64,000 bases of DNA from positions 81,345 through 145,344 of the forward strand of contig CAYFJW010000001.1 in the NCBI GenBank assembly GCA_964343875.1. The letters are read 5' to 3'. Shown here one piece after another: positions 10,977-62,297 of the stretch. The number at the start of each line of letters is the position of its first letter. Position 1 is the first letter of the stretch. The position numbers and the translations under genes are program-made. The notes beneath the pieces were generated by a model. That model ran no database searches, was not told the origin of the DNA, and saw only the letters and a program-made list of their open reading frames with translations. Source of the DNA: Candidatus Woesearchaeota archaeon. GTDB lineage: Archaea > Nanobdellota > Nanobdellia > SCGC-AAA011-G17 > UBA489.

Positions 10977-11525
10977 CCTCTCATAATTACTATCGCTTAA
11001 ATCCTTCTTATAATCTTGCAAAGCCTTAACCAACTTAGCACTATCTTTACACAGGCCCCGCTTAAATAAAAACTGACAAAATTGAGTAACATTCTTCGGA
11101 ACCAAAACCCTTTTACATCTCTCAAAATCAATTAAAACAGGCTTACCATTAACAACAATAACATTCTTAGTAATCCTATGCATCTCAAACTTGTTAACTT
11201 TCAACTTATCCATAACTCTACACTGTCTTAATATCTCTTTCAAAACAGAATCCTCATCAGAACAACCAACTAAATAGTCAGATAAATGAACACCATCTAA
11301 ATATTCCATAAAAAGAGACTTTTCATCAGAAAAATACAACTTAGGACCAATTCCCTTTTTGTTTAACTCCTTTAACCAGTAACTTTCAGTCTCCAATCTA
11401 TTAACTGCATCACTCTTAGGGTTAGGAATCTTAACAGCACAAACCTTTCCCCTGTACCTCCCGAGTTTAACTATGCCTCGCTTACCCTTCCCAATTATTT
11501 TTCCAAAAGACTTATTTTCCGCCAT
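10956..11525 (-). CDS. Atypical small protein kinase-like protein (Bud32/RIO-sized)
   Basis: Gly-rich loop GKIIGKGKRGIV and VAIK-like CAVKIP motif. The catalytic loop is unusual (EMHRITKNVIV), and LIDFERC occupies the DFG-like position. Confidence 0.4.
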   Translation of the reverse strand: MAENKSFGKIIGKGKRGIVKLGRYRGKVCAVKIPNPKSDAVNRLETESYWLKELNKKGIGPKLYFSDEKSLFMEYLDGVHLSDYLVGCSDEDSVLKEILRQCRVMDKLKVNKFEMHRITKNVIVVNGKPVLIDFERCKRVLVPKNVTQFCQFLFKRGLCKDSAKLVKALQDYKKDLSDSNYERLFLLFF

Positions 11526-11598
11526 TTAAGAGCCTATAGACCCATCCTATAGAAAGTTATTTAAATACTCTTCCCATCGGATAAAGAATAAAGGGGTC

Positions 11599-13335: not shown

Positions 13336-13341
13336 GGGGTT

Positions 13342-14622
13342 ATGATGGCCTTCAAAACAAAATATTTTTTATTCCTACTTCTTATTCCCATAGCACTTGC
13401 ACAATTAGACCTAATTGAAATAAATTCTCAAAGAACAGAACTATCACAAGGAGAGGTCTATCAAGCAGAAATAACACTAAACAACCCAATAACTGAATTA
13501 AAGAAAACAAACATTAAACTATATTCCTCAGAGAACGCAATAATTCCTGTGTCACCTTTCTTGAACGAACCAGGAAACAACCACTATTATCTCTACTTTG
13601 AAGTCCCTTACAGCATAGAAGACGGGACATATCAATTAAGAATACAAGACCAATCATTCCTGGTAAATGGCGTTCTTCAGCAATTTGAAGGCATAGAAGA
13701 AATAACAATCACAAAGTCACAACCATCTGTTGCAGTAACTCCCGGTTATTTCTTATTGCCTGAGGGAGAAACAGGACAGATTAGCATAACAACTACTTCA
13801 AAAGACATTCAAACAAACATATTTTTCCTAACTCCAAAATACATAACACACCCCTACATCACAGAACAATCAATTAACCCAAATGTACCAAGAACATTCA
13901 CTTTCGACTATAGCACTTTAAATGCAACATCCTCAGAGCTAGTAGTTAACTCTGGAACAAAACAATACAAAATTCCAGTATTAATCGAAGGTCAAATTGA
14001 AAACAATCAAGAAAACATCACCCAAAACCAACAAACAAGCCCAATTACATTCTTTGTAGATAACAACCACCTAGAAAAAACAATAAAATCAGACCAGGCA
14101 ATTGAAGGCAATCTCTACATGGCCAACACCCTAAACTCCTCAATAACCGACATAACCTCAGAACTAACAGGAAACCTAAAAGAAATAATAACAATGGGTT
14201 CTATCCAACCAATACCTGCTTCATCAAACTTCACAACATTCATGAGCATAAATCAAGCAAAGGATGCAAAAGAAGGCATTTACTCGGGAGATTTCATTCT
14301 TTCTAGCGAACTTTACAGCTCATCATTAGAAATAACAATAACTGTAGAAGAAACAGAAACAACAAGAGAAATCTTAGAACCTCCAGAAGTAACCGAAACA
14401 ACAGAGACCGCAGAACCAGAAGCAAAAGCTCCAATTGAGGAATTCATCCCTTGGGACCTTTCAGACGGATACGAAGAAGAATCAAAAGTGGCAGCAAATC
14501 CCTTCATATATCTAATCATTATTTTTGTAGTAATCGCAGTTGTAATTTTCCTATTATCGGGTAAAAAATCAACTAAGAAGAAAACATTCAAAGATTTAAT
14601 GAAAGAAAGTCAAAAGAAATAA
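13342..14622 (+). CDS. Secreted membrane-anchored surface protein (Thr/Glu-rich stalk)
   Basis: Signal peptide MMAFKTKYFLFLLLIPIALAQ, many NxS/T sequons, an ETETTREILEPPEVTETTETAEPE linker, and a C-terminal TM plus KKSTKKK tail. Confidence 0.5.
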   Translation: MMAFKTKYFLFLLLIPIALAQLDLIEINSQRTELSQGEVYQAEITLNNPITELKKTNIKLYSSENAIIPVSPFLNEPGNNHYYLYFEVPYSIEDGTYQLRIQDQSFLVNGVLQQFEGIEEITITKSQPSVAVTPGYFLLPEGETGQISITTTSKDIQTNIFFLTPKYITHPYITEQSINPNVPRTFTFDYSTLNATSSELVVNSGTKQYKIPVLIEGQIENNQENITQNQQTSPITFFVDNNHLEKTIKSDQAIEGNLYMANTLNSSITDITSELTGNLKEIITMGSIQPIPASSNFTTFMSINQAKDAKEGIYSGDFILSSELYSSSLEITITVEETETTREILEPPEVTETTETAEPEAKAPIEEFIPWDLSDGYEEESKVAANPFIYLIIIFVVIAVVIFLLSGKKSTKKKTFKDLMKESQKK

Positions 14623-15048
14623 TTATTTTTTAGCCTCTTCAACAACACCCAACTTCTTCTTCATAACTTTATTCTCTGCATGCATATTCTTTAACAACAT
14701 ATCATACTGGTGTAACCTAGCAATTAGGTCATTCCACATATTGTCCATAATCTCTTTCTTAAAATTAAAACTTCCTGGATCAATAACTTCTATTGAACTA
14801 GGCATAAAATCAAAACAGAAACCAGTCACATCATCCATATTCTTAAAACCTAACTCAACTTCGACAAATTTACTCCAAAAAGGCCTACCTTCAATACTAG
14901 TAGTTTCAGAAACCTTCTCAGAAAGCACTTCTATATCTTTAGCTTCTTTAAGCTTCCCAAGTATCATATCCATGGTCTTGTTAACATGCTCTTCTGGGGA
15001 ACCCATTAACTCCATGATTGCCTTGATCGTTACAGCTGGTTTTTCCAT
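14623..15048 (-). CDS. Hypothetical protein
   Basis: 141-aa ORF with gene-like codon usage. I recognise no family. Confidence 0.35.
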   Translation of the reverse strand: MEKPAVTIKAIMELMGSPEEHVNKTMDMILGKLKEAKDIEVLSEKVSETTSIEGRPFWSKFVEVELGFKNMDDVTGFCFDFMPSSIEVIDPGSFNFKKEIMDNMWNDLIARLHQYDMLLKNMHAENKVMKKKLGVVEEAKK

Positions 15049-15050
15049 TT

Positions 15051-16076
15051 TTACATCCTAAACAACACATAATAAACGCCCAATCCACCAATGAGATATA
15101 TGAGATAAAATGCCATTCCATCCCACCATTTCCTCTCTTTAACAGCGATTTTGGCGTCTTCATTAACCTCATTTACAGCATTTATATCCCTTTCTATTGC
15201 TCCACCCTTCAACAAAGTCCTGTCTTCTTTCTCAAAAACCCTCTGCCCCTCGACCCATATCAAACGCATATCTTTCTCCCTGAAACCCTCAACAACAAGT
15301 ACATATTCTCCTTCCTCGGGATAAGCAGAATTATTACAAACAGCAACAGGAAACTCAACAACCTGGCCATCATGGGCCTCGACCCTAAAGCTGCTAACAA
15401 CATCAACGCCCATTAAATAAGCCTTAATCTTCTCAGTTCCATCTCTATTATTCCAAATGGCAACCCTAACCTTTACATTACCACAGATATTGGGAGAATT
15501 ACTATCGACACCTTCGATATGAATATAACCATTTTCATCATTAACCTCTTCAATTTCTTTATTCTCTTCACTAGTTTCATTGCCTTCGCTCTCATTACTT
15601 GGCCCGTCATTAATCTCACCAGGACTAGGCACACAAGAGTATTCTTCTTCACCGTAACAAACAGCATTGCCGTCACCATTGCCAATTGATCCATCGTAAC
15701 TTTTACTATCGACTAAGTCCATATTCAAGTTGTACAATGAAACAACATCTTCCGCATTACTTAGTCCATTCCCGATAGTTTTCCCGGCCGAATAAATACT
15801 AACAAATTCCAAGTCAACATCGAAATAAGGAGGGTAACCCTCTTCAACAATTAAATTAATCTTACTATTCCCGCTTCCATTCACTAAAAGTATTATATCT
15901 TGGCTTGTTGAATCTTCAATTGTCCAACCATCAATCAATGTCCCCTCACTAAATATAACCTCCACGTATTCCTTGTTATTATCGCTCCCAGAAGGATTAT
16001 ACATGATCTCAGTTATCTCAGCATTTACAAAAGTAGAACAAAGAACAAACACCAAAACATAAATCCATCTAAACAT
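15051..16076 (-). CDS. Secreted membrane-anchored protein with an N-terminal lamin-tail-domain (LTD)-like module
   Basis: Signal peptide MFRWIYVLVFVLCSTFVNA, then EITEIMYNPSGSDNNKEYVEVIF (LTD signature INEI..NP....EfvEL). Acidic stalk and C-terminal TM. Confidence 0.5.
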   Translation of the reverse strand: MFRWIYVLVFVLCSTFVNAEITEIMYNPSGSDNNKEYVEVIFSEGTLIDGWTIEDSTSQDIILLVNGSGNSKINLIVEEGYPPYFDVDLEFVSIYSAGKTIGNGLSNAEDVVSLYNLNMDLVDSKSYDGSIGNGDGNAVCYGEEEYSCVPSPGEINDGPSNESEGNETSEENKEIEEVNDENGYIHIEGVDSNSPNICGNVKVRVAIWNNRDGTEKIKAYLMGVDVVSSFRVEAHDGQVVEFPVAVCNNSAYPEEGEYVLVVEGFREKDMRLIWVEGQRVFEKEDRTLLKGGAIERDINAVNEVNEDAKIAVKERKWWDGMAFYLIYLIGGLGVYYVLFRM

Positions 16077-16128
16077 AAATTCTTCAAAAAGATTAAATTA
16101 AATAAACAAACTAAGAATTAATTGCAAA

Positions 16129-16521
16129 CTATCCGATAACTTTCTCAAAACTTCGACCTTTCTTACTAACTAAATCTTTATCAAAGTAATAATTACCCTT
16201 ACCATTACTTTTGCCTAACTGATTAGGTTTCAAAAACATCCACTTCATTCCATCAAACCTAACAGCAACCCATGATTCAGCACCAAAGCCTTTAGAAAAA
16301 GTTGTCAACTCATTTATTTGTTCTTTAGTGATGTATCTTCTTTGTTTTCCTTTTCCGCTTTTACATTCAATTGCTAAACTCTTTCCGTTTTTACCCGCAA
16401 TTAAATCCGGACAAGGTAGAGGCATACTTCCACTTCCAGCCATACGAATACAAAACCAATTCTCTTTCCAAAACAAATGAAGAAGTTCCCTTTCTGTCCT
16501 AGACCCCTTTTTCTTGCTCAT
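16129..16521 (-). CDS. hjc: Holliday junction resolvase Hjc
   Basis: ERELLHLFWKENWFCIRMAGSG...DLIAGKNGKSLAIECK matches the Hjc nuclease motifs (E...SG...D...E.K) in a 130-aa protein. Confidence 0.75.
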   Translation of the reverse strand: MSKKKGSRTERELLHLFWKENWFCIRMAGSGSMPLPCPDLIAGKNGKSLAIECKSGKGKQRRYITKEQINELTTFSKGFGAESWVAVRFDGMKWMFLKPNQLGKSNGKGNYYFDKDLVSKKGRSFEKVIG

Positions 16522-16591
16522 AAAATAAAAAAGAAGTTACGCCTTTAATAAGTTTTGTAAAAAAATAGAATAAAAAAAGAAAAGAAGAGAC

Positions 16592-16763
16592 TTAAAGGTC
16601 TCTTGCTTTAACTGTGGATCTTCCGTTCTCTTTAGCTCTTCTACAAGCGTCTTTAACTAGACCTTGAACTTGTACGCTAAGAGCATCAGCGAAATCACCA
16701 GCAACATTCATGCCTTTTGCAGCATCTTTAACTTTGCTTCTTACTACTAATATTTCTGCCATT
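16592..16763 (-). pseudogene. DUF1931-like histone-fold protein, interrupted by an apparent +1 frameshift near the N-terminus as given
   Basis: The frame from 16592 encodes ...SKVKDAAKGMNVAGDFADALSVQVQGLVKDACRRAKENGRSTVKARDL*. The ATG at 16763 (MAEILVVR) is out of frame by 1 nt at the CC near 16740-16741. Removing one base gives MAEILVVRSKVKDAAKG... Confidence 0.45.
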
Positions 16764-16912
16764 TTTATCATGCACCCCGTTTGTTTTTATTTTGATATCC
16801 ATGAAAAGGCCTTACAGACCTTCTATCTCATGTTTTCATTAGAATGATGCCCAAGTAGTATTTAAACATTTCGTTAATACAGCCTCTATTTGCTGTTTAA
16901 CAAGGTTTTAGA

Positions 16913-19900
16913 CTAAATTCCTGTCTTAGCAACAGGTCCAGCTAGATCCTCAGAAATCACATCTACAACGCTCTCAATGACTCCTGAGCCTCCAGAACCG
17001 CCGTCTAAGCCCATTCCCTCAGTCTTCTCCAAGCAAATGACTCTAACTTCTTCATAGTCAAGAGTAATCTGGGTCGATAGTTCGGCTTTATTTCCTACAA
17101 CAACTTTTTCAGTCTTTGTAGGTCTAACACTTTCCCAAGAATTTATTTCAGTGATTATTGGCCAAGCCTGATTAATATAGTCGTTCCATGTTGCTCCAGG
17201 TGTGCTGTGGATATTATCAATCATTGGTTGCAATAAAGCCTGAATCTCTGGTTCAACATCGTCATGGTAAGGGTTTCCGTCTTCATGCCCAATCTTATAA
17301 GTTGTATACAACCAAGCACTTACATCTGTTGGTAAATTCTTTGCAGTTAGTTTTATTGTTGCACTTTTACCTGCCCTGTCAAAGTTAACACCATACCAAC
17401 AATAACTAGTTCCTTCCTGATTCCTAACAGTAAATGCACGAACAGTATCTTCTTCATTTAAGTCATCATCAACCATCAACGTTCCAGGCGCATCATGTAA
17501 TAGCTTAGATAACCAGAACACTGGTTTGTATACTCCACTTCTATCAATCATGTTTTCATCCCATCCAAGAAATCTTCCCTGTATTGTTCCGGGTTCATGA
17601 ACATTACTATAGAGTTGGAACCAACCCGCACGGTCTATATCATAATTAGCACTATTTGCAAGCAAAGCCATTGTACTTGAAACAGCATGTATGCCATCGC
17701 CATTGATCATTGGCTTACCGGGCAGACCATCACTAAACTCGTCCATATTTGTTCCTAAAAATGCACCATTATTTGCCCGCCAATGCTCAAGCGCCTGCTC
17801 CGGATCCCCCCCAGGAGTCATTGTATAGGGGTCAGGGTTGTAGTGGTGGTAGTGATGTGTTGCCTTTAGACCCTTAGCATCAAGAGCTTCAAAGACCTCA
17901 ATCGGTACATAGACTTTAGTTCCATTCTCTGAATTTAAAGTACCAAAGAATGCAGAAGTCCCATCAACTCCGACCTCATTACTCGGATCAACCTCATAAA
18001 CCGCCTCAACACCTGCAACCGTTAAATCAACAAATTCTTCCATTGTTGGCCACCAACAATCTCCAGGCGCCTTACAAACTTCCTTCCAATTCTCAACGAC
18101 AAAGTTTGGCTCATTCCATATTATGAAGTACTTGATCCCCTTTGAATTGTAATGTCTTACTACATCCTTAACATAATCTTTCCATGCTTGCATGTCCTTT
18201 GCAGGACCACTTGATTCATAAGTAACACATTCTGTACCAACAAAATCCGAACAATAAGCAATACCTTCTTCTGAAGGAATCCCTTTTATAACAACCATTA
18301 CTTTTGCGCCATTCTTCTGGAGTTTAGTGTGCACTCTGGTGGGAGGGAAACCTCTCTCATACCTATCAAATCTGTGCCCAGTCCTTACATGTATTCCCTC
18401 AACCCCAACCTCATTAATATAAGCATCTAAAAACTTAGGATGCATAAATGGCCCAATAACATTTCCAAAACCTTTAGTTAATCCATGAACATCCTTAACA
18501 ACTTGATCGGTATAAACATTCATCTCAAACTCTTTATCTCCCCCAGGTTCTACCTCAATAAACTCCCTCTCTTCTCCACCAATAATGCCTACACTCCCAG
18601 GCCCGCCCTCGCAAGGCTCGTAACCTGTCTCAAATCCATAGGACTGGAATTCCTCCAAACTCATCTCTTTTGTGTAATAGATAGTGGGGTTATCCACACA
18701 ATAAGTATTGCCACTTATGACAAGCCCATCTTTTGAATCTTCATGTAAATTAAGAAGTCTTTCAGTATTAATATTATCCTCGAAATTGTTTCTTATCAAA
18801 ATATTCTTAGCACCAACCCTATTGTTTCCATCAATCGTAGCATGCACACCAATTGCAACATCCACATCACTGATTGTATTCTCCTCAATACTACAATCAT
18901 GACACCCTTCAACACCTATTGAGCCCTTGTATCTATAAGTTCCATCCAAGGTTATCCTTTCAAAAACGTTTCTAATTGCATGAACGTTAGTTGCAACGGG
19001 ATCAACTCCAGCAGTTCCAGCCCAATTATTCCAACAACAACCGCCAAGTATCAATGCATGATTTCTCACAATCAAATCATGGAAATAGTTGTCAATATAA
19101 TAAACACCGCTAGCACCACCCTTCGCCCAAGAAACAGCACCGGGATCACGTACACTTAAAGAGTCATCATGGAACTCATTCTGTATTATCCATGCACCAT
19201 TAACACCAAATGCATCAACACTTTCACCTTCACCAGCAATGTTAAAAAATTCATTCCTATAAATTAAAACATTTGCAGATTCAGTTGTAGTTTTAATTCC
19301 ATCTTCGTATGCCTCACTTATCTTATTATTATAAACAACCAGATGGTCAGCAATATCTCTATCCCAGATAGTCATACAAACTCTGATGTAGCATCTAATA
19401 TCAAAGCCTTCAAGAGTTGTATACTTTCCGCCAAAATGGATCTTTCCGTCATTATGTCTGGCCTCCATAATCACATCCTCGCCCTCGTAAGCAAAGATCC
19501 TGATAGGCTTATCAGAAGTCCCTTGGAACTTTGCAGTAACACCTCCTTCATCTAGGATATAAGTTCCAGCCCCAACTGCAATAGCCTCACCGGCAACAAC
19601 GTCATACTTCTTCATTGCCTTCAATGTCGCACATGGACCATCAGCACCACTAATATACCGTGGGTACAAACAATTATTATCATCACTTGCCCCTTGTTCG
19701 TTCTGAGCAATGTAATATATTTTTTCAGGCTCAAAATTAAGCATATCTAAAAACTCTTGCGGAACATCGGAAGAATGTCCTCCGCCAACATCCAACATCC
19801 AACCTTCTCCATCACCACTTACCTCTTCTCCTTCAACAGTTTCAGGATCATCAACTAAACCAAAGAACCTAAAGGGAAAACTAAAGAAATTATCTACTCT

Positions 19901-23737: not shown

Positions 23738-23791
23738 TTTCGAAGATTTAATAAATAAATAGGCACAGGAGTAATTAAAAGAGGTACATAA

Positions 23792-25516
23792 ATGGCATTA
23801 GAGCTATTCTCAAACTTACAGGTAAACTTACTATTTGACTTGGCAGTAATTATAGTGTTTGCCACAATAATTGCATTCATTGTAAGGCTCTTTAAACAGC
23901 CATTAATTCTTGGTTATATCCTGGCCGGTGTTGTTCTTGGTCCAAACTTACTACAATTAATTCAAAACCAAGAAATTATCTTCGCTTTATCCGAGATTGG
24001 AATAGCATTCTTACTATTTTTCGTAGGTCTAGAAATGGATCTCAAAAAATTAAAAGAAGTGGGATTCTTCTCCTCATTGGGGACAATTATACAAATAGCA
24101 ATCACCTTCTTCCTAGCCTTATTTATAGCACTACAATTCGGGATAGATAACACCACAGCAACAATCATAGGTTTCATTGTAGCATTTAGTAGTACGTCCG
24201 TTGTTGTAAAAATATTCTCAGATAAAGACCAGATAGATACATTACATGGCCGTCTAGCACTAGGGTTATTATTGATGCAAGATATTGTTGTTATCTTTTT
24301 ACTCTCAGCATTGTCTAATTCAGGAGGAATAACCGCCGCAAGCCTAGTAACTTCATTCTTCAAAGGTATAGCTTTATTCGTTCTAGCATTAGTTCTATCA
24401 GCAAAAGTATTCCCTCGTTTATTTACAGCAGCAGCAAAATACCAAGAACTAACACTGCTAATGGCATTAACAACCTGTTTCTTATTCTCAACCATAGCCG
24501 CTTATTTCGGGTTCTCCATAGCTGTAGGAGCATTCATCGCAGGAATTAGCATAGCTCCATTAAAATACAGCTTAAACATCCAGGGAATGATCGGTCCATT
24601 AAAAGATTTTTTTGCAACAATTTTCTTCGTCTCATTGGGACTCCAATTACAGTTTACATCCCTTGGAGAGCTAACCAACCTATTCATTGCACTATTACTT
24701 CTAGTTATTTTAGTAAAACCATTACTAATCGCAATAATTGCACTAATCTTTGGATATGAAAAAAGATCTGCATCAATAACAGGATTCTCTTTAGGACAGG
24801 TAAGCGAGTTCTCATTAATTGTCGCAGCAGTAGCATTGAGTAATGGCTTCATCGGACAAGAAATATTCTCAATTACAGTTCTTTTAGTCGCAGGTTCAAT
24901 TGTAGCAACAACATATATCATGAATATAGAAAACAAAATCTACTCCTTCCTCTCTGGATTCTTCACATTCGTTGCAAGGTTTGTCCCAAGAATGAAAACT
25001 CAAAAGAAAGTGGTTGCTAGAAAAAAAGACATTGTTCTATTTGGGTGTCACAGAATGGGAACAATATTCTTAAATGCATTCAAAAAAGCAAGAAAAAAAG
25101 TTTTAGTTGTGGACCATAACCCCGTTACAATAAAGAACTTAGAAAGAATAAAGGTTAACTGCCTGTACGGAGATATTGCAAATGAAGAAGTCCTAAAGGG
25201 CGCAGGATTAAGCAATACGGAGTTTGTAGTCTCAACAATAAGGATAGTAGAAGACAACCTATATCTAATTAATTACTTAAAAGAACATAAATACCAAGCA
25301 AAAATAATAGTAGTCGCAGAACATGTCCATCAAGCATTGGATTTATACGATGCAGGTGCGGATTACGTAATCATTCCTCACATTGTCTCAGGAGAAAAAG
25401 CCTCAACAATGATAAGGGATTTATTGAGGGGAAGAAAGAACATAGAAAAAATAAAAAATGAAAGTATTGATCACATACTTTTCATGGAGAGGTTCGGACA
25501 AAAGATAAAGGATTAA
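23792..25516 (+). CDS. Kef-type monovalent cation:proton antiporter (CPA2) with a C-terminal RCK/TrkA-N domain
   Basis: 12-13 TM Na+/H+-exchanger domain, then a Rossmann motif IVLFGCHRMGTIFLNAFKKARKKVLVVDHNP. Confidence 0.8.
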   Translation: MALELFSNLQVNLLFDLAVIIVFATIIAFIVRLFKQPLILGYILAGVVLGPNLLQLIQNQEIIFALSEIGIAFLLFFVGLEMDLKKLKEVGFFSSLGTIIQIAITFFLALFIALQFGIDNTTATIIGFIVAFSSTSVVVKIFSDKDQIDTLHGRLALGLLLMQDIVVIFLLSALSNSGGITAASLVTSFFKGIALFVLALVLSAKVFPRLFTAAAKYQELTLLMALTTCFLFSTIAAYFGFSIAVGAFIAGISIAPLKYSLNIQGMIGPLKDFFATIFFVSLGLQLQFTSLGELTNLFIALLLLVILVKPLLIAIIALIFGYEKRSASITGFSLGQVSEFSLIVAAVALSNGFIGQEIFSITVLLVAGSIVATTYIMNIENKIYSFLSGFFTFVARFVPRMKTQKKVVARKKDIVLFGCHRMGTIFLNAFKKARKKVLVVDHNPVTIKNLERIKVNCLYGDIANEEVLKGAGLSNTEFVVSTIRIVEDNLYLINYLKEHKYQAKIIVVAEHVHQALDLYDAGADYVIIPHIVSGEKASTMIRDLLRGRKNIEKIKNESIDHILFMERFGQKIKD

Positions 25517-26754: not shown

Positions 26755-26802
26755 GCCTGTTCACAATACGGTGAACTATAAGAACTTAACTATAGTGAAA
26801 GA

Positions 26803-26876
26803 TGGACCGGACGGGATTTGAACCCGCCGCATTACGGCTGCCAGCCGTACATTCTACCAGACTGAATTACCGGCCC
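26803..26876 (-). tRNA. tRNA-Ala (anticodon GGC)
   Basis: GGGCCGG acceptor with G3:U70, anticodon loop CTGGCAG, T-arm GGTTCAAATCC, discriminator A. Its 5' end overlaps the last codons of the upstream LAGLIDADG ORF. Confidence 0.8.
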
Positions 26877-27631
26877 AGTTTTCTTACCTTGTAGGGTCTA
26901 ACTAGGCTTAAAAACTTGTTGACTTCCCTTTCCCTTATTCTCAAAACAAAGAGGTCTTTCCATTCAGGATTTTTTCTTTTTTTACACCAAACTATCGAGG
27001 AAATGCCCAGCTCTTCTAAAATGACTTTCATCTGATAGACTAATTCTTTTGAGGTAGTATAATAAAATGCCCTTAATCTATTGTTTGAGGTGCTCAAGCA
27101 ACCATCTGTATCAAAAAACCCCCTTAAAAAACCAATCTTAAACATTCTATTAAGTGATACTCCTCTAAGTTGGCATGTATTATGTTTATTTCTACAATCA
27201 TACTTAAGATAATTATTGAAAAAATAAAATAACTCTTTATTAATTGCCCTAATCCTATACTTCACCTGGCCTTTTCTGTTTGTTTCCTTCCAGATTCTCC
27301 ACGACCTTCCAAAATAATTCTCGAATAATTTTTTCACGTAAATTACATAATTTTCCACATTCCCAAAATGTATAGTCGTGAGGTATTGTCCATTGGGTCG
27401 ATAATGATATTGACTTCCATCTCCTGCAAAAATGCCCACTATCTCCCCCTCAATCTCGGAGAAACTTATTTTATGTGTTGGTTTTTTGTATTTTTTACCG
27501 TTAACTTTTCGATAATAATAGTAGATTGTAGACTTTGCAAGTCCCGTTTTGGCCACTATCTTGCTTATTGAGAGATTGTTTTTTAAATCAAGAATCAAGC
27601 CTACTCTGATGGATGAGTCTAATCTTTTCAT
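26867..27631 (-). CDS. Free-standing double-motif LAGLIDADG homing-endonuclease-like protein with an N-terminal HTH
   Basis: Two LAGLIDADG motifs (IVGIFAGDGS and GFLRGFFDTDGC). N-terminal HTH LSISKIVAKTGLAKSTIYYYY. Not inside an intron or intein. Confidence 0.75.
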   Translation of the reverse strand: MKRLDSSIRVGLILDLKNNLSISKIVAKTGLAKSTIYYYYRKVNGKKYKKPTHKISFSEIEGEIVGIFAGDGSQYHYRPNGQYLTTIHFGNVENYVIYVKKLFENYFGRSWRIWKETNRKGQVKYRIRAINKELFYFFNNYLKYDCRNKHNTCQLRGVSLNRMFKIGFLRGFFDTDGCLSTSNNRLRAFYYTTSKELVYQMKVILEELGISSIVWCKKRKNPEWKDLFVLRIREREVNKFLSLVRPYKVRKLGR

Positions 27632-40847: not shown

Positions 40848-41090
40848 ATGGTTGCAAGAAGAAGAACAGCAAGAAAAACTACTAGAAGAAGAAAAACTAC
40901 TGCTAGGAAAACTACTAGAAGAAGAAAAACTACTGCTAGGAAAACTACTAGAAGAAGAAAAACTACTGCTAGGAAAACTACTAGAAGAAGAAAGACAGCT
41001 GCAAAGACAACAACTCGAAGAAGAACTAGAAGAAGGAAAACCGCTGCAAAGACAACAACTAGAAGAAGAGTTAGAAGAAGGAGACGTTAA
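40848..41090 (+). CDS. Tandem-repeat-encoded ultra-basic Arg/Thr/Lys-rich protein (80 aa)
   Basis: Encoded by three perfect 33-bp repeats (TTARKTTRRRK) and two ~45-bp repeats. Strong SD and ATG. A second frame (TTG at 40801) stays open through the same repeats. Confidence 0.5.
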   Translation: MVARRRTARKTTRRRKTTARKTTRRRKTTARKTTRRRKTTARKTTRRRKTAAKTTTRRRTRRRKTAAKTTTRRRVRRRRR

Positions 41091-42057: not shown

Positions 42058-43137
42058 TTAGCTAAAATCGGCTAGTTTTTTCTCGCTTTCAGGGGCTCCA
42101 TGAGTGACTCTTGTAGATCTACCCCTGCCCTCATTAACCTCTCTTAGAGTAATAAATCCATTATCTCCAAGACCTTTCAACTTTCTTTGAAAAGTGGTAT
42201 ACGCTTGTTTTCCTCCAGCCTTTTGATAAGCAACATGCATCTTGCTACTTGTCAACCCAGAATTAAGTTTAACAACATTAAGAATAAACTCTTCCTCTTC
42301 GCCTAACTGAGAAGAACTCTTTCTTTGGAACTCATCCAACCTACTTATCGCTTTTTCAGCATCAATTAATTCAACTTTTCTTTTAGATTTACCTTCCGCT
42401 TCTTCCCCGGCATTCTTTAACAAAAACAATCCAGATCTTATATCTCCCATCTCAAAAGTTTTACCAACTATTTTCTCAAAAGCGTCATCAATTAACACAT
42501 TGGGAACAAAGGCATACTTAACTCTCTCCTGTAATATATCCCTAACCTCATCGTAATTATATGGTTTAAAATCAACAACTTCAGCAAGCATCCTACTCCT
42601 AACTCTGTCATCTAACTTACTCAACCAATCTTTCTCATTAGTAATACAAATTATAGATTTAGTAAACAAATCCTCAAATAATGTATAAAATATCTGTTGC
42701 TCATCAATCTTATCGGCTTCATCCAATATAACAACACAAGGACTTCTATTCAGTATCTTTGTAATCTCCTTCATCAACTCATCAGTATTCCTTCCAGCCG
42801 TAAACCTAAATCCTAATTGACTGCACATCTCCAAAACAACTTTATACGGCGTATCCTTCTTCCAGCAATTGATATACACAGATTTAATATATCCACTTTG
42901 TTCCTTCAACTCATCAATTAAATGCTTTGTAGCAACAGTCTTACCGATCCCAGGAACCCCAGTTAGAACAACATTCTTCCCACTTCTTTTGCTAAACAAG
43001 GGCTTCAAACACTCAGCAATATATTTCTGTTCCCCTTCCCGATGCTTAACCACAGGAGGCATATAATCCACATCAAGGGCAATGCTATCTAAGAAAAGGC
43101 TCTCATCCCCCTTCAACATATCATCAAAGATCCCCAT
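42058..43137 (-). CDS. orc1: Orc1/Cdc6 replication initiator (AAA+ plus winged helix)
   Basis: Walker A VLTGVPGIGKT, Walker B VVILDEADK, and a C-terminal winged helix. Confidence 0.85.
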   Translation of the reverse strand: MGIFDDMLKGDESLFLDSIALDVDYMPPVVKHREGEQKYIAECLKPLFSKRSGKNVVLTGVPGIGKTVATKHLIDELKEQSGYIKSVYINCWKKDTPYKVVLEMCSQLGFRFTAGRNTDELMKEITKILNRSPCVVILDEADKIDEQQIFYTLFEDLFTKSIICITNEKDWLSKLDDRVRSRMLAEVVDFKPYNYDEVRDILQERVKYAFVPNVLIDDAFEKIVGKTFEMGDIRSGLFLLKNAGEEAEGKSKRKVELIDAEKAISRLDEFQRKSSSQLGEEEEFILNVVKLNSGLTSSKMHVAYQKAGGKQAYTTFQRKLKGLGDNGFITLREVNEGRGRSTRVTHGAPESEKKLADFS

Positions 43138-43219: not shown

Positions 43220-44134
43220 ATGGAAGATCTTAGATTCGGGGGAAAGAGTATGCGTTTGGATAAGTTTCTAATGCAGGAATTCCCTTCTGCAACACTGTCC
43301 GAGATCTATAAGTGGATTAGAACGGGTAAAATAAAAGTAGATAGGAAGAAACAGAAACCGAGATATCGCTTAAATCCTAAAGAAGTTGTGAATATATTTC
43401 TAACCAAAACACAAATTGAAGGTTATCAAACAAAGGGCGTTGTACATAAAGTTTCTTTCAAAGTCTTATTTGAAGACGAAGACATACTAATTTTAGATAA
43501 GCCTCCTTTTTTAGCATCCCAAGGAGGAATCGGTGTTAATGAAAATAATTTAGTTAATCAGGTTATTTATTATCTTAAGAAAAATGTTAAGATTTCCCTA
43601 GGAAATAGGTTAGACAAAGATACTTCTGGGATCATACTTCTTGGTAAAAATCCAAAAGCAAATGCCTTAATTTACAACATAACAAAGAGTAGAAGTATCG
43701 AGAAGAAATACTATGCATTGACAGTTGGAAGAATAAGAAAGAAAACTGGAACATTTAAGGATTACTTAGCAAAAGGAACGCGGGATTTCCAACCGGTTAT
43801 GAAAGTTTCAAACAAAAATGATTCCCGTGCCAAATACTGTGAAACAACCTACAAAGTAGTAAAACATATCAAAAACCATTCACTACTAGAACTAACACTA
43901 AAGACGGGCAGAATGCATCAGATAAGGGTTCAATTAGCATCAAGAGGTTTTCCAGTCTTAGGCGATAAACTATATGGAAACGAAAATGAAAACAAAAAAA
44001 CTAAACTAAAAAGACAGTTCTTACATGCTTCCCAAGTAACATTAAACCACCCAATTACAAATAAAAAACTAAAAATCACTTCAGAACTGCCAAAGGATCT
44101 TAAAAAAGCCCTAGAAAAAATCAAAGCTCGATAA
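43220..44134 (+). CDS. RluA-family pseudouridine synthase with an S4 domain
   Basis: S4 start MRLDKFL. Catalytic NRLDKDTSGIILLGK. GRMHQIRVQLASRGFPVLGDKLYG. The true start may be the internal Met at about 43250. Confidence 0.8.
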   Translation: MEDLRFGGKSMRLDKFLMQEFPSATLSEIYKWIRTGKIKVDRKKQKPRYRLNPKEVVNIFLTKTQIEGYQTKGVVHKVSFKVLFEDEDILILDKPPFLASQGGIGVNENNLVNQVIYYLKKNVKISLGNRLDKDTSGIILLGKNPKANALIYNITKSRSIEKKYYALTVGRIRKKTGTFKDYLAKGTRDFQPVMKVSNKNDSRAKYCETTYKVVKHIKNHSLLELTLKTGRMHQIRVQLASRGFPVLGDKLYGNENENKKTKLKRQFLHASQVTLNHPITNKKLKITSELPKDLKKALEKIKAR

Positions 44135-44486
44135 CTTTACTTTCTTTATCAAGTCCAACTAACCTAAAGCCAATACCCATTTTCATTAAAGCACTAATTA
44201 AGGCCATATGTTCTCTTCCATCACCAGAAACAAAATTAACGGCAATCTCCATCCCCTTTATTTTCTCTTTCAACTTAGTCTGAATTTCAGTAACCATCTC
44301 ATCAAGATTCTTACTAGTTAGCTCAACCAATTCAACACCTTCTTCAGCCTTAAAGTTTTGAACACCGAAATCATTTGTTAACAAAATTACCTTCTCCCAT
44401 TTATCTCCATTAATCCCTGGAAGAAGCCTATTAACATGGCCCCACGTGCCTTTTCCAGTACTCAAGAATGCAACTAATTCTGTCAT
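44121..44486 (-). CDS. Stand-alone Rossmann-like domain protein resembling the CARF domain of Csa3
   Basis: VAFLSTGKG...KVILLTND...VNFVSGDGREHMALISALMKMGIGFRLV parallels the N-terminal half of the Csa3-like protein at 45057. No HTH. Confidence 0.3.
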   Translation of the reverse strand: MTELVAFLSTGKGTWGHVNRLLPGINGDKWEKVILLTNDFGVQNFKAEEGVELVELTSKNLDEMVTEIQTKLKEKIKGMEIAVNFVSGDGREHMALISALMKMGIGFRLVGLDKESKVIEL

Positions 44487-44578
44487 AACACTTAGATTAT
44501 TAGGTTGTTTTTAAGTTTTCCCAACATCTCCGATAATATCCCAAAACCCCTTTTAAACAAACAAAAAACAACAACTAA

Positions 44579-45025
44579 ATGAAACACTATCTCATAATTC
44601 TACTTCTATTAACTTCCTGCACCCCCTCCTCAAACTTAGAGGGCCCATTCAAAGTAATTGACGTAATAGATGGAGACACACTAAAACTAAACACTACAGA
44701 AAAAGTAAGACTTTCAGGGATAAACACTCCTGAAAAAAAGGAATGCCACTACCAAGAATCTAAAGATAAACTAAAAGAACTAACATTAAAAAAAGAAATC
44801 TTCTTAGAAAAAGACTACACAAATAAGGGAAAATACGGAAGACTCCTAAGATATGTGCACACAAAGGACCAAGACATAAACAAAAACCTAGTTCTTAATG
44901 GATACGCAAGAGTATATGACAAGTACGCTTACGACACTAAAAAATACAAGGAGTTAAAGGAGTTAGAACACAAAGCAAGACTCCAGAACCTAGGCGTATG
45001 GGCTTGTAAAGAATTAACACAATAA
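44579..45025 (+). CDS. Staphylococcal-nuclease (SNase/thermonuclease)-like secreted lipoprotein
   Basis: Lipobox LLLTSC. SNase core IDGDTLKLNT...VRLSGINTPEK...GRLLRYVH...NGYARVY. Confidence 0.8.
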   Translation: MKHYLIILLLLTSCTPSSNLEGPFKVIDVIDGDTLKLNTTEKVRLSGINTPEKKECHYQESKDKLKELTLKKEIFLEKDYTNKGKYGRLLRYVHTKDQDINKNLVLNGYARVYDKYAYDTKKYKELKELEHKARLQNLGVWACKELTQ

Positions 45026-45056
45026 AAGTTATAAACCCCTCACCCATATAACAAAT

Positions 45057-45704
45057 ATGCAAAAGAGCGTAGTTCTTGCTCCTGTAGGGGATAACATGGA
45101 AGCCTTGTACGTCGGACTTAGAGACTTTCCTGCAAGCAAAATAATTCTCTTATCTTCTGAAGATCAAATTGAAGAAGCAGAAAAAGCAAGGAAGGAACTA
45201 GAAAAGTTCAGCATACCTGTCAAAATAGTGCCAATTGATGGAAACCCCTGGGAAGGAATCTTTGAAAAAGTCTCAAAACTATCTTCGGAAGAAAAAGAAC
45301 ATGAAGTTGTAGTCAATACTTCGTCAGGCGATAGAAATTCACAATGTGCCATGACCTCAGCAGCATTCGTCAACGGACTAAAAGCATTTGCAGTAATGGG
45401 CGACGAAACAATGCTCCTTCCAATCTTAAAATTCTCATACTACAAAACACTAACAGATAAAAAACTAGATATCTTAAAAGTTCTACACGAAGATAAAACC
45501 TGTTGTAAATCTTTGGAAGAACTAAGTCAAAAAATTAACATGAGTCCTCCATTAGTTTCTTACCATATTAATGGAACACTAAAATCTGAAGGATTAAAAA
45601 CACTTGGCCTAGTTGAAGTAAGTGAGAAAAACGGAAAAATAGCATTGAATATTTCAACCCTGGGTAGACTCCTGATGAAAGGCTACGTTAAGCAAGCCTT
45701 ATAA
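45057..45704 (+). CDS. Csa3-like regulator (N-terminal CARF-like Rossmann domain plus C-terminal winged HTH)
   Basis: VVLAPVGDNMEALYVGLRDFPASKIILLSSE...VVVNTSSGDRNSQCAMTSAAFVNGLKAFAVMGDE parallels the Csa3 CARF domain. The C-terminal wHTH is LDILKVLHEDKTCCKSLEELSQKINMSPPLVSYHINGTLKSEGL. Confidence 0.45.
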   Translation: MQKSVVLAPVGDNMEALYVGLRDFPASKIILLSSEDQIEEAEKARKELEKFSIPVKIVPIDGNPWEGIFEKVSKLSSEEKEHEVVVNTSSGDRNSQCAMTSAAFVNGLKAFAVMGDETMLLPILKFSYYKTLTDKKLDILKVLHEDKTCCKSLEELSQKINMSPPLVSYHINGTLKSEGLKTLGLVEVSEKNGKIALNISTLGRLLMKGYVKQAL

Positions 45705-45862: not shown

Positions 45863-46687
45863 TTAACCCTTATTGACAATATAAAAACACTCATTCCCTA
45901 TTTCAAAATAACTAAACTTATACTTTAACCTTTTAACCATCAGCTCAAACCACTTTCTTCGAGGATTATTCATCTTCCTATTTGAAATGGTCTTTGTTGG
46001 GAAACTAACAACCACGCTCTTAGAGTTAACTTTTTTCAAGAACTCTTCACTATTCTTATGGTCCCCTTTATAATCCAAAACATCGGCCATCTTAAACAAA
46101 AAACAAACATCAAATTTGCCTTTTGGAACCTTTTTCAAATAGTCTCTATCAAAAACATTAACTTCCAACCCCTTTCCAGAGAAATAATAAAGTTTCTTTG
46201 AAAGTTTCAAATAAGAATTAATCAATCTTATATCCTCTTTTCCAACGTCAACGCCCACATACTCAAAGTCATCGAACCCAATAAAAGGCAATGAAAATGC
46301 ATTCAAACCGCAACCAACATCAAGAATCCTTTTAGGTTTCTTAACTTTACTAAAAATCCCTTCATAAACTTCTTCATAAAACTCCTTTCTCTCCCTAGTT
46401 GAAGAATGGCAGTGAAGCATTTCTAAATGTAGTTTGACCAACTCTGCACCACCCCTAGATTTAAGCATGTCATAAAATATTTTGTCCTTTTTACCTTGGT
46501 TACTAATCTGATAAACAGAATAAGTCTTATGTAAAAACTCCTTAACTTTCTTCAAAAAGGACTTGTACACCTTCTTATTTCCCAAATCTTCAGAACCATA
46601 AAGCCCATGGACAATACTCTTAACGTAGGGCCTTCCCAATCTAGAAAATTTCTTAGACCTTAACACATCCTCAACAATTCCTTGCAT
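45863..46687 (-). CDS. FmrO-family (ArmA/RmtB/Sgm-like) putative 16S rRNA (guanine1405-N7)-methyltransferase
   Basis: Hallmark HSSTRER motif, then SAM motif I ILDVGCGLNAFSLPF. Compare ArmA IFDIGCGFNPLAL and Sgm LHASTAERL...VLDLACGLNPLAVPW. Confidence 0.55.
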   Translation of the reverse strand: MQGIVEDVLRSKKFSRLGRPYVKSIVHGLYGSEDLGNKKVYKSFLKKVKEFLHKTYSVYQISNQGKKDKIFYDMLKSRGGAELVKLHLEMLHCHSSTRERKEFYEEVYEGIFSKVKKPKRILDVGCGLNAFSLPFIGFDDFEYVGVDVGKEDIRLINSYLKLSKKLYYFSGKGLEVNVFDRDYLKKVPKGKFDVCFLFKMADVLDYKGDHKNSEEFLKKVNSKSVVVSFPTKTISNRKMNNPRRKWFELMVKRLKYKFSYFEIGNECFYIVNKG

Positions 46688-46780: not shown

Positions 46781-47236
46781 ATGCCTAAAAAGATCTCAAG
46801 AGACATTCCATTAAGTGAAATAACTCTCCGTAGATACGAAAAACCTTACAAAATGCCAAAAAGAGAGGCAACTAGAAAATTATGCCTGTCTCTAGGACTT
46901 TTGCAACCAGGTGATTCTCGTGATGTTGTAGTTGATGTTCTTCAAACAATAGTAGACACAAGCAAAAGAAAGAAAATGATAACTTCTGAAGAAGTCCAGA
47001 AGAAAGTAATTGCGTACAGAAAGAAAAACAGACTAGGCGTTAACGGTGTAGCGGCATCAAACATAAGAAGGCAAATGAAACGTCTAAAAGACTTACAAAT
47101 AATTGAAAAGATAAAAAACGAATATCGTGTAGTCGAATATGAAAACCTAGATACAGTATTTGAAGAAAGAATAAAGAAATATTACTTACCACAAATTCTT
47201 AGTAGGGTTAAAGATTATTGTAAATCGGTCAAATGA
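46781..47236 (+). CDS. Hypothetical protein, possible winged-helix DNA-binding protein
   Basis: 151 aa. An HTH-like segment GVNGVAASNIRRQMKRLKDLQIIEK. No family assigned. Confidence 0.35.
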   Translation: MPKKISRDIPLSEITLRRYEKPYKMPKREATRKLCLSLGLLQPGDSRDVVVDVLQTIVDTSKRKKMITSEEVQKKVIAYRKKNRLGVNGVAASNIRRQMKRLKDLQIIEKIKNEYRVVEYENLDTVFEERIKKYYLPQILSRVKDYCKSVK

Positions 47237-53060: not shown

Positions 53061-54632
53061 ATGAAGATCGGAAAGAAGCTATTGGTCAGCTTTTCAATTA
53101 TTGTAGCATTCCTCATAATATCCGCTCTAGTAACTACTGTTTACACTCTAAGAATCAATAGCAAACTACACAAAATCACAGAGGGAGTAAACCCCTTGGA
53201 AACAGATGTTCAAGACATGATCAGCATCCTCTGGAGAAGCAATTACATAGTTCAAAGATACTCGACAGAAGATGATCTAGAAACTCTAAGAGACTTAGAA
53301 TTTGAATTTGAATACATCAACGGACTATTCACTAAAAAATCAAATAGATTAACTGAACTTGGATCGGAAGAAATACAAGAAAAAGTATTACAGGCAACAA
53401 ATAAACACAATACATTCTACCAATTATCTAAAAGGCTAATGGATAAAAGGGCAGAGGATGTAGCAAATGGAGTTATTTATGCAGAGTCCTCAATTTTAGT
53501 ACAATACAGCATTGCAAAGCAACTAGAAAGAGATGTAGTTGATGCAGTTGAGTTCCTACAAGAGGCAATTGAAGAATTCTCCATAATCAAACAAACAGCC
53601 AAACAAGACTCCAGTGCAGCGGTTAAGATAGCAATAACTATGATTATCTTGATAGCATTCATTGGAATAGTTACAACCTTCGCAGTTTGGTCTTCACTAA
53701 CAACCACAATCACAAAAAGAATTAATGCCTTATCAGAAGCATCTTCGAAGCTATCTAAGGGTAAATTTGACATTGAGGTAGAATCGGATGAAAGGGATGA
53801 TGAAATATCAGAACTGGCATTCACATTCAATCAAATGGTTCTAAGCCTAAGGAAGATTATACAAGAAAGCCCGAGACTAAAGAAATTCATCACATTGAAA
53901 GGTAAAAAAGAAAAGTTAATGCAAAAGTACATAATTGAATCAGGAACAAGCTATTTAATCAAAGAACCAACGTCTCAAGAAGCATATGAAATTTTAATAG
54001 AAAAAACAGAAGAATACACACCTCTACTGATTACAAGAGATAATCTAGATGTAATAGAACAGAAATATGGCATAGCCAAAAAGAACATGATCCGGCTATC
54101 TGATGAAAAAGAAAAAGGAATTACTTCAACATCAGACTTAAACCAATTGCAAAAGAGCACAATAGAATTCTTATCAAAGAATGAAAAAGCAATTGTCTTG
54201 CTAGACCGCTCAGACTACATCCTAAATAAATACGGATTTGAAAACTTCCTAAAATTCATCACAAATATCAATGATAAAATAATGGGAAAGAAGGCAATAT
54301 TCCTCCTACCGGTTGATCCGCAAATATTCACCAATAAACAACTATCCTTGCTAGAAAAAGAGGTCCACGCCCCACCACAGCAAACTGTAACAGAAACAAT
54401 ATCGGAAGAATTAAAGGGCATATTGAAGTTTATCTCTGATAGAAGTGCAATAAACAAACCAGCTACTTACAAGGACGTAGGAACAGAGTTTTCAATCACA
54501 GCCCCAACAACCAAAAAGAAGCTAGAGGAGCTCCATTCCCTTGGTTTAATTAGAGTAACAAAGATAGGCAGGAACAAGGTTCTGAAGACAACCAGAGACG
54601 GGGACAGAGTAGTATCTAGCTCAAACCTTTAA
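53061..54632 (+). CDS. Membrane sensor: two TM helices flanking an extracytoplasmic domain, a HAMP-like linker, and a cytoplasmic domain ending in a winged HTH
   Basis: HAMP-like ITKRINALSEASSKLSKGKFDIEVESDERDDEISELAFTFNQMVLSL. C-terminal wHTH KPATYKDVGTEFSITAPTTKKKLEELHSLGLIRV. Confidence 0.4.
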   Translation: MKIGKKLLVSFSIIVAFLIISALVTTVYTLRINSKLHKITEGVNPLETDVQDMISILWRSNYIVQRYSTEDDLETLRDLEFEFEYINGLFTKKSNRLTELGSEEIQEKVLQATNKHNTFYQLSKRLMDKRAEDVANGVIYAESSILVQYSIAKQLERDVVDAVEFLQEAIEEFSIIKQTAKQDSSAAVKIAITMIILIAFIGIVTTFAVWSSLTTTITKRINALSEASSKLSKGKFDIEVESDERDDEISELAFTFNQMVLSLRKIIQESPRLKKFITLKGKKEKLMQKYIIESGTSYLIKEPTSQEAYEILIEKTEEYTPLLITRDNLDVIEQKYGIAKKNMIRLSDEKEKGITSTSDLNQLQKSTIEFLSKNEKAIVLLDRSDYILNKYGFENFLKFITNINDKIMGKKAIFLLPVDPQIFTNKQLSLLEKEVHAPPQQTVTETISEELKGILKFISDRSAINKPATYKDVGTEFSITAPTTKKKLEELHSLGLIRVTKIGRNKVLKTTRDGDRVVSSSNL

Positions 54633-61373: not shown

Positions 61374-61430
61374 GCTAAAAGCTTATTTCTCTTTTCTTAT
61401 TTTTTATTTAATTCTAGTTAGAACTCTAAG

Positions 61431-61504
61431 AGGCACTGGCAGGATTCGAACCTGCGAAATAACCGCTCTGCAGGCGGTCCCCTTAACCACTTGGGCACAG
61501 TGCC
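61431..61504 (-). tRNA. tRNA-Cys (anticodon GCA)
   Basis: GGCACTG/CAGTGCC acceptor, anticodon stem ACCGC/GCGGT with loop CTGCAGA, T-arm GGTTCGAATCC, discriminator U73 (Cys identity element). Confidence 0.8.
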
Positions 61505-61739: not shown

Positions 61740-62297
61740 CTAAAGACCAATTAAAAACTTAAATGATTTTTGTCTTAACTGAACAGCCTTCCTTCCGCGG
61801 TGTTTGTAGATATTTCCATCACTATCAAAGACGCCCTTCAAGAAAGCAATTTTTACAGATCTCCCTGCCCTAGATATCTCTGCAGGTACAACAATTTTTA
61901 CATATTTCTTCCCAATAGGGATTTGATACTTAAAATGGAGGAGTAAAGATAATGGCTTAGAGTAGGTAACTAGCGAGTAACATCCAGACCCATCATAGAT
62001 CTTTGCATCTAAATCAAACAAGCCCCTTACTAGTGCTCTACATTTCTTAGCGTCCTCCAAAGAACAAAAGGCAATTCTAACTGAGTAGATCAACCTACTT
62101 TCTTTTTTCCTAGCGACAATGCACCCATCTCCAAGTATTAGTCCAATAAAGTAGCCAACCTTTACAGGATCTAGAGCATCTAAAGAAACACTATTTCCCC
62201 CATTCACACAAATTTTCACTAAATTTAGTCCATCAAAAGAGAATGTTAAGTTCTTATACGACTTTAATTTCTCAAGAATGTTCTTTTCAACAATCAT
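61740..62297 (-). CDS. Free-standing double-motif LAGLIDADG homing-endonuclease-like protein
   Basis: Two LAGLIDADG motifs (YFIGLILGDGC and FLKGVFDSDGN). 185 aa. About 135 nt upstream of the tRNA pair, same strand. Confidence 0.75.
   Translation of the reverse strand: MIVEKNILEKLKSYKNLTFSFDGLNLVKICVNGGNSVSLDALDPVKVGYFIGLILGDGCIVARKKESRLIYSVRIAFCSLEDAKKCRALVRGLFDLDAKIYDGSGCYSLVTYSKPLSLLLHFKYQIPIGKKYVKIVVPAEISRAGRSVKIAFLKGVFDSDGNIYKHRGRKAVQLRQKSFKFLIGL

Follow-up and report, generated by a model that had tools for sequence, protein, structure and literature searches.

Csa3 regulators, among them Csa3a (Sso1445, PDB 2WTE/6WXQ; model TIGR01884), combine a CARF domain with a winged helix-turn-helix (wHTH) domain of MarR-like type. 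In Csa3a, a G-x-R position contacts the phosphates of cyclic tetra-adenylate (cA4) (PMC8699464). HFX_2341, or Crr, of Haloferax mediterranei (308 amino acids, aa) is inherited vertically, has no link to CRISPR and acts as a global repressor whose signal is not known, and the sole Haloferax study of DUF6293/HFX_2341 regulators could name neither the signal nor the binding site (PMC11434293). CARF homologues beyond CRISPR loci are abundant (PMC4012209; PMC12669027). Here we analyse three neighbouring genes in a 64,000-nucleotide (nt) stretch of DNA from a Candidatus Woesearchaeota archaeon (contig CAYFJW010000001.1), referred to below as the window. They encode a stand-alone CARF-type protein of 121 aa (p121), a staphylococcal-nuclease homolog of 148 aa (SNase) and a CARF-wHTH regulator of 215 aa (p215). 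The positions and sizes of the three open reading frames (ORFs) given in an earlier, sequence-only reading hold, as they were re-read from the window, and public contigs with identical proteins give the same gene calls (Table 1). That reading took the trio for a ligand-responsive regulatory or defence-like unit. Our results argue against this: the trio is limited to one clade, the recurrent partners of p215 are redox genes, that of p121 is orc1/cdc6, and the nuclease is predicted to be exported. We consider it probable (roughly 0.6) that the genes serve three independent functions, are separately promoted, and were made neighbours by lineage-specific rearrangement in one marine Woesearchaeota-type DPANN clade, without forming a dedicated sensor-effector module. 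Taken alone, the locus is unremarkable: an exported nuclease stands next to a regulator of a known kind, Csa3-like and not linked to CRISPR.

We collected 80 genome loci around p215 homologs and 80 metagenome loci around p121 homologs and searched them by tblastn and by hidden Markov model scans. Genes in the fetched loci were called by a longest-ORF heuristic with ATG starts only. Many loci come from related metagenome-assembled genomes (MAGs), and the locus counts given here should not be taken for numbers of independent events. Only close relatives in which the whole block from Orc1 to HemK2 is syntenic keep the trio (L001–L005, where p215 is at least 71% identical, and L082–L092). No SNase gene was found within 10 kb in any of the 75 more distant p215 loci. 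A p121 homolog lies within that distance in three of them (L036, L043 and L070, all of one clade). Neither p215 nor SNase was seen in the 69 more distant p121 loci (L081, L093–L160), 48 of which are contigs shorter than 10 kb and provide a weaker negative than the genome loci. Conservation of the genomic context, which the sequence-only reading had named as a check, thus reveals no conserved module and restricts the trio to one Woesearchaeota clade.

The protein p215 has a CARF-like N-terminal domain followed by a wHTH, which is the architecture of both the HFX_2341/DUF6293 family and Csa3. It matches HFX_2341_N (PF19810) with 49.6 bits against a gathering threshold of 30 (E = 6.5e–13, profile positions 2–119 of 120); PF19810 is present in all 120 p215 homologs listed, and close homologs are named 'DUF6293 family protein' by NCBI. 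The scores stay below both Csa3 cut-offs (TIGR01884, 31.5 versus 60.2 bits; PF22662, 22.2 versus 27 bits). The PADLOC CARF3 profile PDLC01866 covers p215 end to end (E = 2e–23), and the Csa3 and CasR profiles match at about 1e–10. PDB sequence and profile searches gave marginal matches only, to Can2 (E = 0.005) and Csm6'. The earlier label of a Csa3-like CARF-wHTH regulator is therefore correct as a description, since the CARF fold, the wHTH and the Csa3-like architecture are all there, but p215 falls short of the curated Csa3 cut-offs and belongs to HFX_2341/DUF6293, a separate family that had been catalogued before.

Several residues of p215 are nearly constant in the family. The β4–α4 loop (Table 1) fits the CARF signature [DN]X[ST]XXX[RK] (PMC4012209), and its G91-D92-R93 falls at the place of the phosphate-contacting G-x-R of Csa3a. 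In a sequence comparison without structural superposition, this tripeptide fits the G-h-R of Csa3 cA4 motif 2 (L-x2-G-h-R) with an Asp in the middle position, while P9-V-G11-D-N13 matches motif 1 (T-h-G-F-[ND]-E-x4-R) only partly. Among 81 p215 homologs, N87 is kept in 78, G91 in 80, D92 in 76 and R or K at position 93 in 74; C97 is found in 81/81, C149 and C150 in 79/81 each. The input of the regulator could be a small ligand that bears phosphate and occupies the conserved CARF pocket (N87..G91-D92-R93) or oxidation of C97, C149 and C150. A tblastn search of p215 against plasmids, aimed at haloarchaeal relatives for a comparison of the cysteines, gave no match. In both p215 and HFX_2341 a CARF-like N-terminal domain is joined to a C-terminal DNA-binding domain, and both are encoded by chromosomal housekeeping-type genes without a genomic link to CRISPR (PMC11434293). 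The two differ in length (215 versus 308 aa), and the p215 family has an invariant Cys triad, a linkage to thiol-redox genes and a specific palindrome, none of which is reported for the haloarchaeal protein. Unlike Csa3, p215 has no CRISPR-Cas system or type III cyclase near it in the window, and the regulon suggested by its relatives consists of redox genes and not of cas genes.

Clustering of neighbouring genes shows that thiol-disulfide redox genes recur beside p215-family members, mostly divergent and directly upstream. The set comprises TlpA/thioredoxin-fold proteins, a CcdA/DsbD-type membrane protein, an 83-aa glutaredoxin-like (Grx) CPWC protein, thioredoxin reductase (TrxR) and a DsbA-like protein. 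At least one thiol-redox gene lies within 3 kb in 48 of the 75 non-syntenic p215 loci (L006–L080), and the density of such genes is 4.5 per 10 kb up to 1 kb from p215 but only 0.42 per 10 kb at 5–10 kb, an enrichment of about 10-fold. The regions upstream of p215 share a sequence element as well: 20 of 80 contain the dyad TTTAAT-N1-ATTAAA (versus 0.05 expected from shuffles). A strict 13-bp palindrome pattern, TTTAA[TC]-N-[AG]TTAAA, has 41 matches in 1.25 Mb of p215 loci. Of these, 29 (in 27 of 81 loci) are located 26–187 nt upstream of a p215-family start, with a mode at about –62, a few bases 5' of the transcription factor B recognition element (BRE) and TATA box. The loci concerned include L006, L011, L013, L018, L023, L026 (2804–2816), L029, L033, L036, L041, L043, L045, L049, L054, L057, L066, L067, L069, L075 and L077, among others. 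Another five palindromes precede additional TlpA-like genes by 38–74 nt, a sixth stands between two genes of this type, and one is upstream of ccdA. In 605 kb of p121-centred loci there are seven palindromes, four of them upstream of a p215-family regulator. The sequence TTTAATNATTAAA would serve as a candidate operator oligonucleotide. We suggest that p215 is a dimeric transcription factor of the HFX_2341/DUF6293 ('Crr', CARF3/Csa3-like) family, and that its DPANN relatives may bind the palindrome, regulate their own genes and control thioredoxin-fold genes.

The window itself departs from this pattern. The palindrome is absent from it and from L001–L003; in L004 and L005, which belong to the same clade, it is retained between the SNase stop codon and the TATA box of p215. 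The top score of a position weight matrix scan of the whole window (12.1) is within the shuffle range, and a search allowing one mismatch returned a single match (23747) versus 1.85 expected. This near-match (TTTAATAAATAAA, 23743–23763) precedes a Na+/H+ exchanger-TrkA_N gene (23792–25516) by about 45 nt and is within chance. No thioredoxin-like gene was found in the window. The palindrome and the redox genes are both missing from the window and the nearest relatives; p215 may act as a repressor or an activator, with thiol-redox genes as the probable usual regulon of the family. We also inspected 15 SNase homolog ORFs (11 distinct) and found no palindrome upstream of any of them (best score 5.2, versus about 19 for the true site downstream of the L004 SNase). 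With no palindrome upstream of any SNase homolog and none in the window, there is no evidence that the nuclease is a target of p215.

These data bear on a reading in which the trio is a regulatory unit, where p215, possibly modulated by p121, would sense a nucleotide and control the adjacent exported nuclease, thus tuning scavenging in a host-dependent archaeon. We find this quite unlikely. The compact layout is compatible with it: SNase is directly upstream of p215 with a spacer of 31 nt, it is divergent from p121 at a distance of 92 nt, and this gene order is kept in all the syntenic relatives listed above. The window, a compact archaeal chromosome segment of low G+C content (about 36%) whose proteins have their nearest relatives in Woesearchaeota and Nanoarchaeota MAGs, is consistent with it too. 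However, SNase is missing within 10 kb of p215 in all 75 distant loci, and the L004 and L005 palindrome, located after the SNase stop codon, would serve p215 only. The p121–SNase intergenic region has no outstanding inverted repeat, and each gene has its own TATA-like element. Hence, while scavenging by the nuclease is plausible, we see no evidence for the part of the earlier proposal that places it under the control of CARF proteins.

A TATA-like element is located about 25 nt 5' of each start codon of the trio (Table 1), which suggests three separate leaderless transcripts. The element of p121 (CTTAAAAA) is found again, as GGGAAAACTTAAAAA, upstream of p121 in L081, L083 and L084, and suggests that p121 has a separate leaderless transcript. 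We considered operons of SNase with p215 and of p121 with orc1; both are weakened, since BRE/TATA-like elements occupy the short spacers.

The nuclease is an ordinary member of the SNase family. Like staphylococcal thermonuclease (PF00565; NucI and EcnA types), to which it has significant Pfam and PDB sequence matches, it appears to be secreted, and the equivalents of D19/D21, R35, T41, E43, Y85 and R87 are kept in the alignment of the two. The differences are an archaeal lipobox anchor, a further pair of conserved cysteines, scores that do not reach the NCBIfam equivalog cut-offs, and the replacement by Asn (N49; N or D among homologs) of D40, which makes up the Ca site together with D21 and T41. 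The N-terminus MKHYLIILLLLTSC ends in the lipobox, and three cysteines, that of the lipobox, C56 and C143, do not vary among 11 SNase homologs, which fits an exported, disulfide-bonded enzyme. The match to PF00565 and the lipobox bear out what the sequence-only reading had called an SNase with a lipoprotein signal. In the cell, the protein would be a lipid-anchored, probably disulfide-bonded, Ca-dependent nuclease that plausibly scavenges external nucleic acids.

An exported enzyme, as indicated by the lipobox and the invariant extracytoplasmic Cys pair, cannot be an intracellular effector activated by a CARF protein. This makes a defence unit, in which a CARF sensor activates the nuclease upon binding cyclic oligoadenylate (cOA) from a cyclase encoded elsewhere, highly improbable, even though CARF domains classically bind cOA and p215 matches the PADLOC profiles of Csa3, CasR and CARF. 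The surroundings point the same way. There is no CRISPR array in the 64-kb window. Pfam scans of 48 ORFs of at least about 140 aa, of which 41 lie outside both the trio and the two unannotated unknowns (46781 and 51578), revealed no domain of cas, cas10, CD-NTase or another cyclase, nor did PADLOC scans of nine ORFs, which include four of the five unannotated ORFs at 10956–19798. The earlier statement that the window is free of CRISPR-Cas therefore agrees with our data for arrays and for the ORFs scanned. Nine of the 48 ORFs have no Pfam match and are unannotated, not demonstrated housekeeping genes. The annotated context is of the housekeeping kind (Orc1, RluA, rRNA methyltransferase, HemK2, ribosomal proteins), and the abundance of CARF homologues beyond CRISPR loci also counts against a cOA-based defence role (PMC12669027).

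The third protein, p121, has a six-stranded Rossmann-like core with a β5–β6 hairpin, as expected for the CARF superfamily. The alcoholic residues that close strand 1 in CARF domains are represented by S9 and T10 (conserved in at least 90% of 51 sequences). The stretch N84-F-V-S87-G-x-G-[KR]91 resembles the CARF signature with a spacing one residue longer; position 91 is mostly K or R, with W in some members, and is below 90% conservation in the same 51 sequences. The family alignment has 21 invariant columns. Judging from the sequence and the predicted secondary structure, the conserved residues would lie where ligands are bound in Rossmann-like domains, at the C-terminal ends of the parallel strands. 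There is no significant match to p121 in Pfam, NCBIfam or PDB sequence and profile searches; weak scores were obtained for Pfam Csa3_N (E = 0.11) and PADLOC CARF3 PDLC01848 (E = 1.3e–3). CARF folds are supported for both proteins that flank the nuclease. Their description as paralogs is unproven, as they share the fold and one weak motif region. With E = 0.021 for p121 against p215 in BLASTP and a probability of 3.8% when their family alignments are compared by hhalign, paralogy is not demonstrable at the sequence level. The BLASTP, hhalign, PADLOC CARF3 and Pfam Csa3_N matches all align the same β3–α4 region.

Compared with the stand-alone ring nuclease Crn1 (Sso2081, Sso1393), which cleaves cA4, and with the CARF domains of Can2 and VC1899, p121 is much shorter at about 120 aa and has no added domain, lacks a significant match to curated CARF models and carries a classical GxGxxG loop; its linkage is to orc1/cdc6 and not, as for Crn1, to type III CRISPR. 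The p121 family is an uncatalogued minimal CARF variant without a Pfam entry. It has 426 homologs in a 90%-identity collection and 324 clusters in a 50%-identity library, and the best 150 of the 324 cluster representatives are 64–279 aa long, mostly 110–135 aa. Domain fusions were considered as a clue to function, and no recurrent partner was found among these 150 representatives.

The dominant genomic partner of p121 is orc1. Of the 55 p121 loci whose flank reaches at least 1.3 kb, 35 have it downstream and on the same strand; the gap is 2–53 nt (mode 34) in 20 of those 35. On the other side of p121, a 151-aa protein (p151) and HemK2 recur, so that the ancestral order would be hemK2 <- p151 <- ... 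p121 -> orc1. In the window clade, rluA appears to have been inserted between p121 and orc1, and SNase-p215-rmt between p151 and p121. The 34-nt p121–orc1 spacer contains a BRE/TATA of its own (AAAGCTTATATC) directly after the p121 stop codon (L095, L100, L101, L107, L118, L121 and others), and orc1 is apparently leaderless and served by a separate promoter. Origin recognition box (ORB)-like, origin-type or operator-type repeats around orc1, p121 and SNase were not above noise. We suggest that p121 has a glycine-rich phosphate-binding loop and is a small nucleotide-binding protein, which may act in the orc1/cdc6 context and not on the nuclease.

The main rival to three independent functions leaves the nuclease aside and pairs the CARF proteins: p121 would bind or degrade the ligand of p215, as a sponge or in a ring-nuclease-like manner, or would heterodimerise with the CARF domain of p215. 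It has some support, and we regard it as possible though unlikely. The two genes are juxtaposed twice independently. The second instance is found in L036 (10001–10989), L043 (10001–10989) and L070 (6911–7911), which are 77–95% mutually identical; there p121 is directly downstream of p215 with overlapping stop and start codons, and the tandem stands behind the palindrome and beside TrxR and Grx genes. However, 72 of the 75 distant regulator loci are without p121 within 10 kb, no regulator is seen in the 69 p121 loci that do not belong to the clade of the window, most of which are short contigs, and the palindrome was never found upstream of orc1-linked p121 in the p121-centred loci.

Some of these observations weigh against the independence of the three genes, which we nevertheless favour. 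The tandem of L036, L043 and L070 hints at a real functional link between p121 and p215. Adjacency of the trio persists where p121 identity falls to 63–64% (L090–L092), and some selection for it is possible. Given the BRE/TATA in the p121–orc1 spacer, the linkage of p121 to orc1 may reflect tight synteny and not co-transcription.

Table 1. Positions in the window of the three genes, their notable segments and the genes next to them
Feature	Position	Strand	Remark
Orc1/Cdc6 replication initiator	42058..43137	–	matches NF001624 and TIGR02928
RluA-family pseudouridine synthase	43220..44134	+	sits between the p121 and Orc1/Cdc6 genes
p121, stand-alone minimal CARF-fold protein, 121 aa	44121..44486	–	
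p121 invariant loop N84..S87-G88-x-G90-x-x-H93	44208-44237	–	after β4
p121 GxGxxG-type loop G11-K-G13-T-W15-G16	44439-44456	–	after β1, at the start of helix 1
TATA-like element of p121	44508..44515	–	CTTAAAAA; centre ~25 nt upstream of the ATG; read from sequence
TATA-like element of SNase, TTTTAAA	44551..44557	+	centre ~25 nt upstream of the ATG; read from sequence
SNase, staphylococcal-nuclease homolog, 148 aa	44579..45025	+	PF00565, E = 8.7e–20, 71.6 bits versus threshold 21
SNase lipoprotein signal, residues 1–14	44579-44620	+	ends in lipobox; read from sequence
TATA-like element of p215, TTATAAA	45029..45035	+	preceded by AAAAG; in the SNase–p215 spacer; centre ~25 nt upstream of the ATG
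p215, CARF-wHTH regulator, 215 aa	45057-45704	+	
p215 N-terminal CARF domain, residues 1–122	45057..45422	+	
p215 β4–α4 loop N87-T-S-S-G91-D92-R93	45315-45335	+	fits the CARF signature
p215 C97	45345-45347	+	invariant
p215 segment after the CARF domain	45432..45680	+	near-invariant C149-C150 (45501-45506) and invariant recognition region P-L-x-S-Y-H-x-N-G
Rmt/FmrO-like 16S rRNA methyltransferase	45863-46687	–	NF000466, E = 3e–44, below cut-off
p151, 151-aa protein without family assignment	46781-47236	+	4-nt overlap with the start of the HemK2/MTQ2 gene

Among the neighbours, the methyltransferase resembles aminoglycoside-resistance-type 16S rRNA (G1405-N7) enzymes, here in a DPANN archaeon, and is syntenic in L001–L005. 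The p151 and HemK2/MTQ2 pair recurs close to the p121 gene in 13 metagenome loci. Farther genes of the window encode ribosomal proteins, SecY, class I lysyl-tRNA synthetase (LysRS), FtsZ, Spt5, diphthamide synthase and primase. Four large ORFs (576, 426, 341 and 961 aa; 11605–19798) without a Pfam or PADLOC match lie where the GC skew is strongly negative, and the neighbouring 189-aa ORF (10956–11525) has weak PADLOC matches to mad6 and PD-T4-6. Two ORFs with a LAGLIDADG_3 domain are located at tRNA genes: one at 26867–27631(–) abuts or overlaps tRNA-Ala (26801–26877), the other at 61740–62297(–) is near tRNA-Cys (61430–61504). Near-perfect tandem repeats of 33/66 nt (up to 93% matches) occur at 40856–41082 within a short K/E-rich ORF between the TatD DNase and metallophosphoesterase genes. 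A protein with HAMP and DUF835 domains, encoded at 53061–54632(+), has a membrane sensor-like architecture amid housekeeping genes.

The palindrome with its candidate redox regulon in the DPANN branch and the linkage of p121 to orc1, both deduced from comparative genomics, are apparently new to the literature. We found no paper that links CARF proteins to Orc1 or describes CARF proteins in DPANN in such a sense. A speculative extension, which we hold to be a long shot, is that the CARF fold has been recruited to housekeeping in a DPANN archaeon that looks CRISPR-less within the window. A DUF6293 CARF-wHTH regulator acting on TTTAAT-N-ATTAAA would control the genes of extracytoplasmic thiol-disulfide oxidoreductases (TlpA, CcdA, DsbA, Grx and TrxR) through oxidation of its Cys triad or through a nucleotide messenger, and p121 would link replication initiation to this signal by binding it as well. 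Overall, the DPANN branch of the widespread DUF6293/HFX_2341 regulators gains a candidate operator and a candidate thiol-redox regulon, and the family of CARF-only proteins of about 120 aa beside the replication initiator gene in Woesearchaeota and Nanoarchaeota adds to the evidence for CARF sensors outside antiviral defence.

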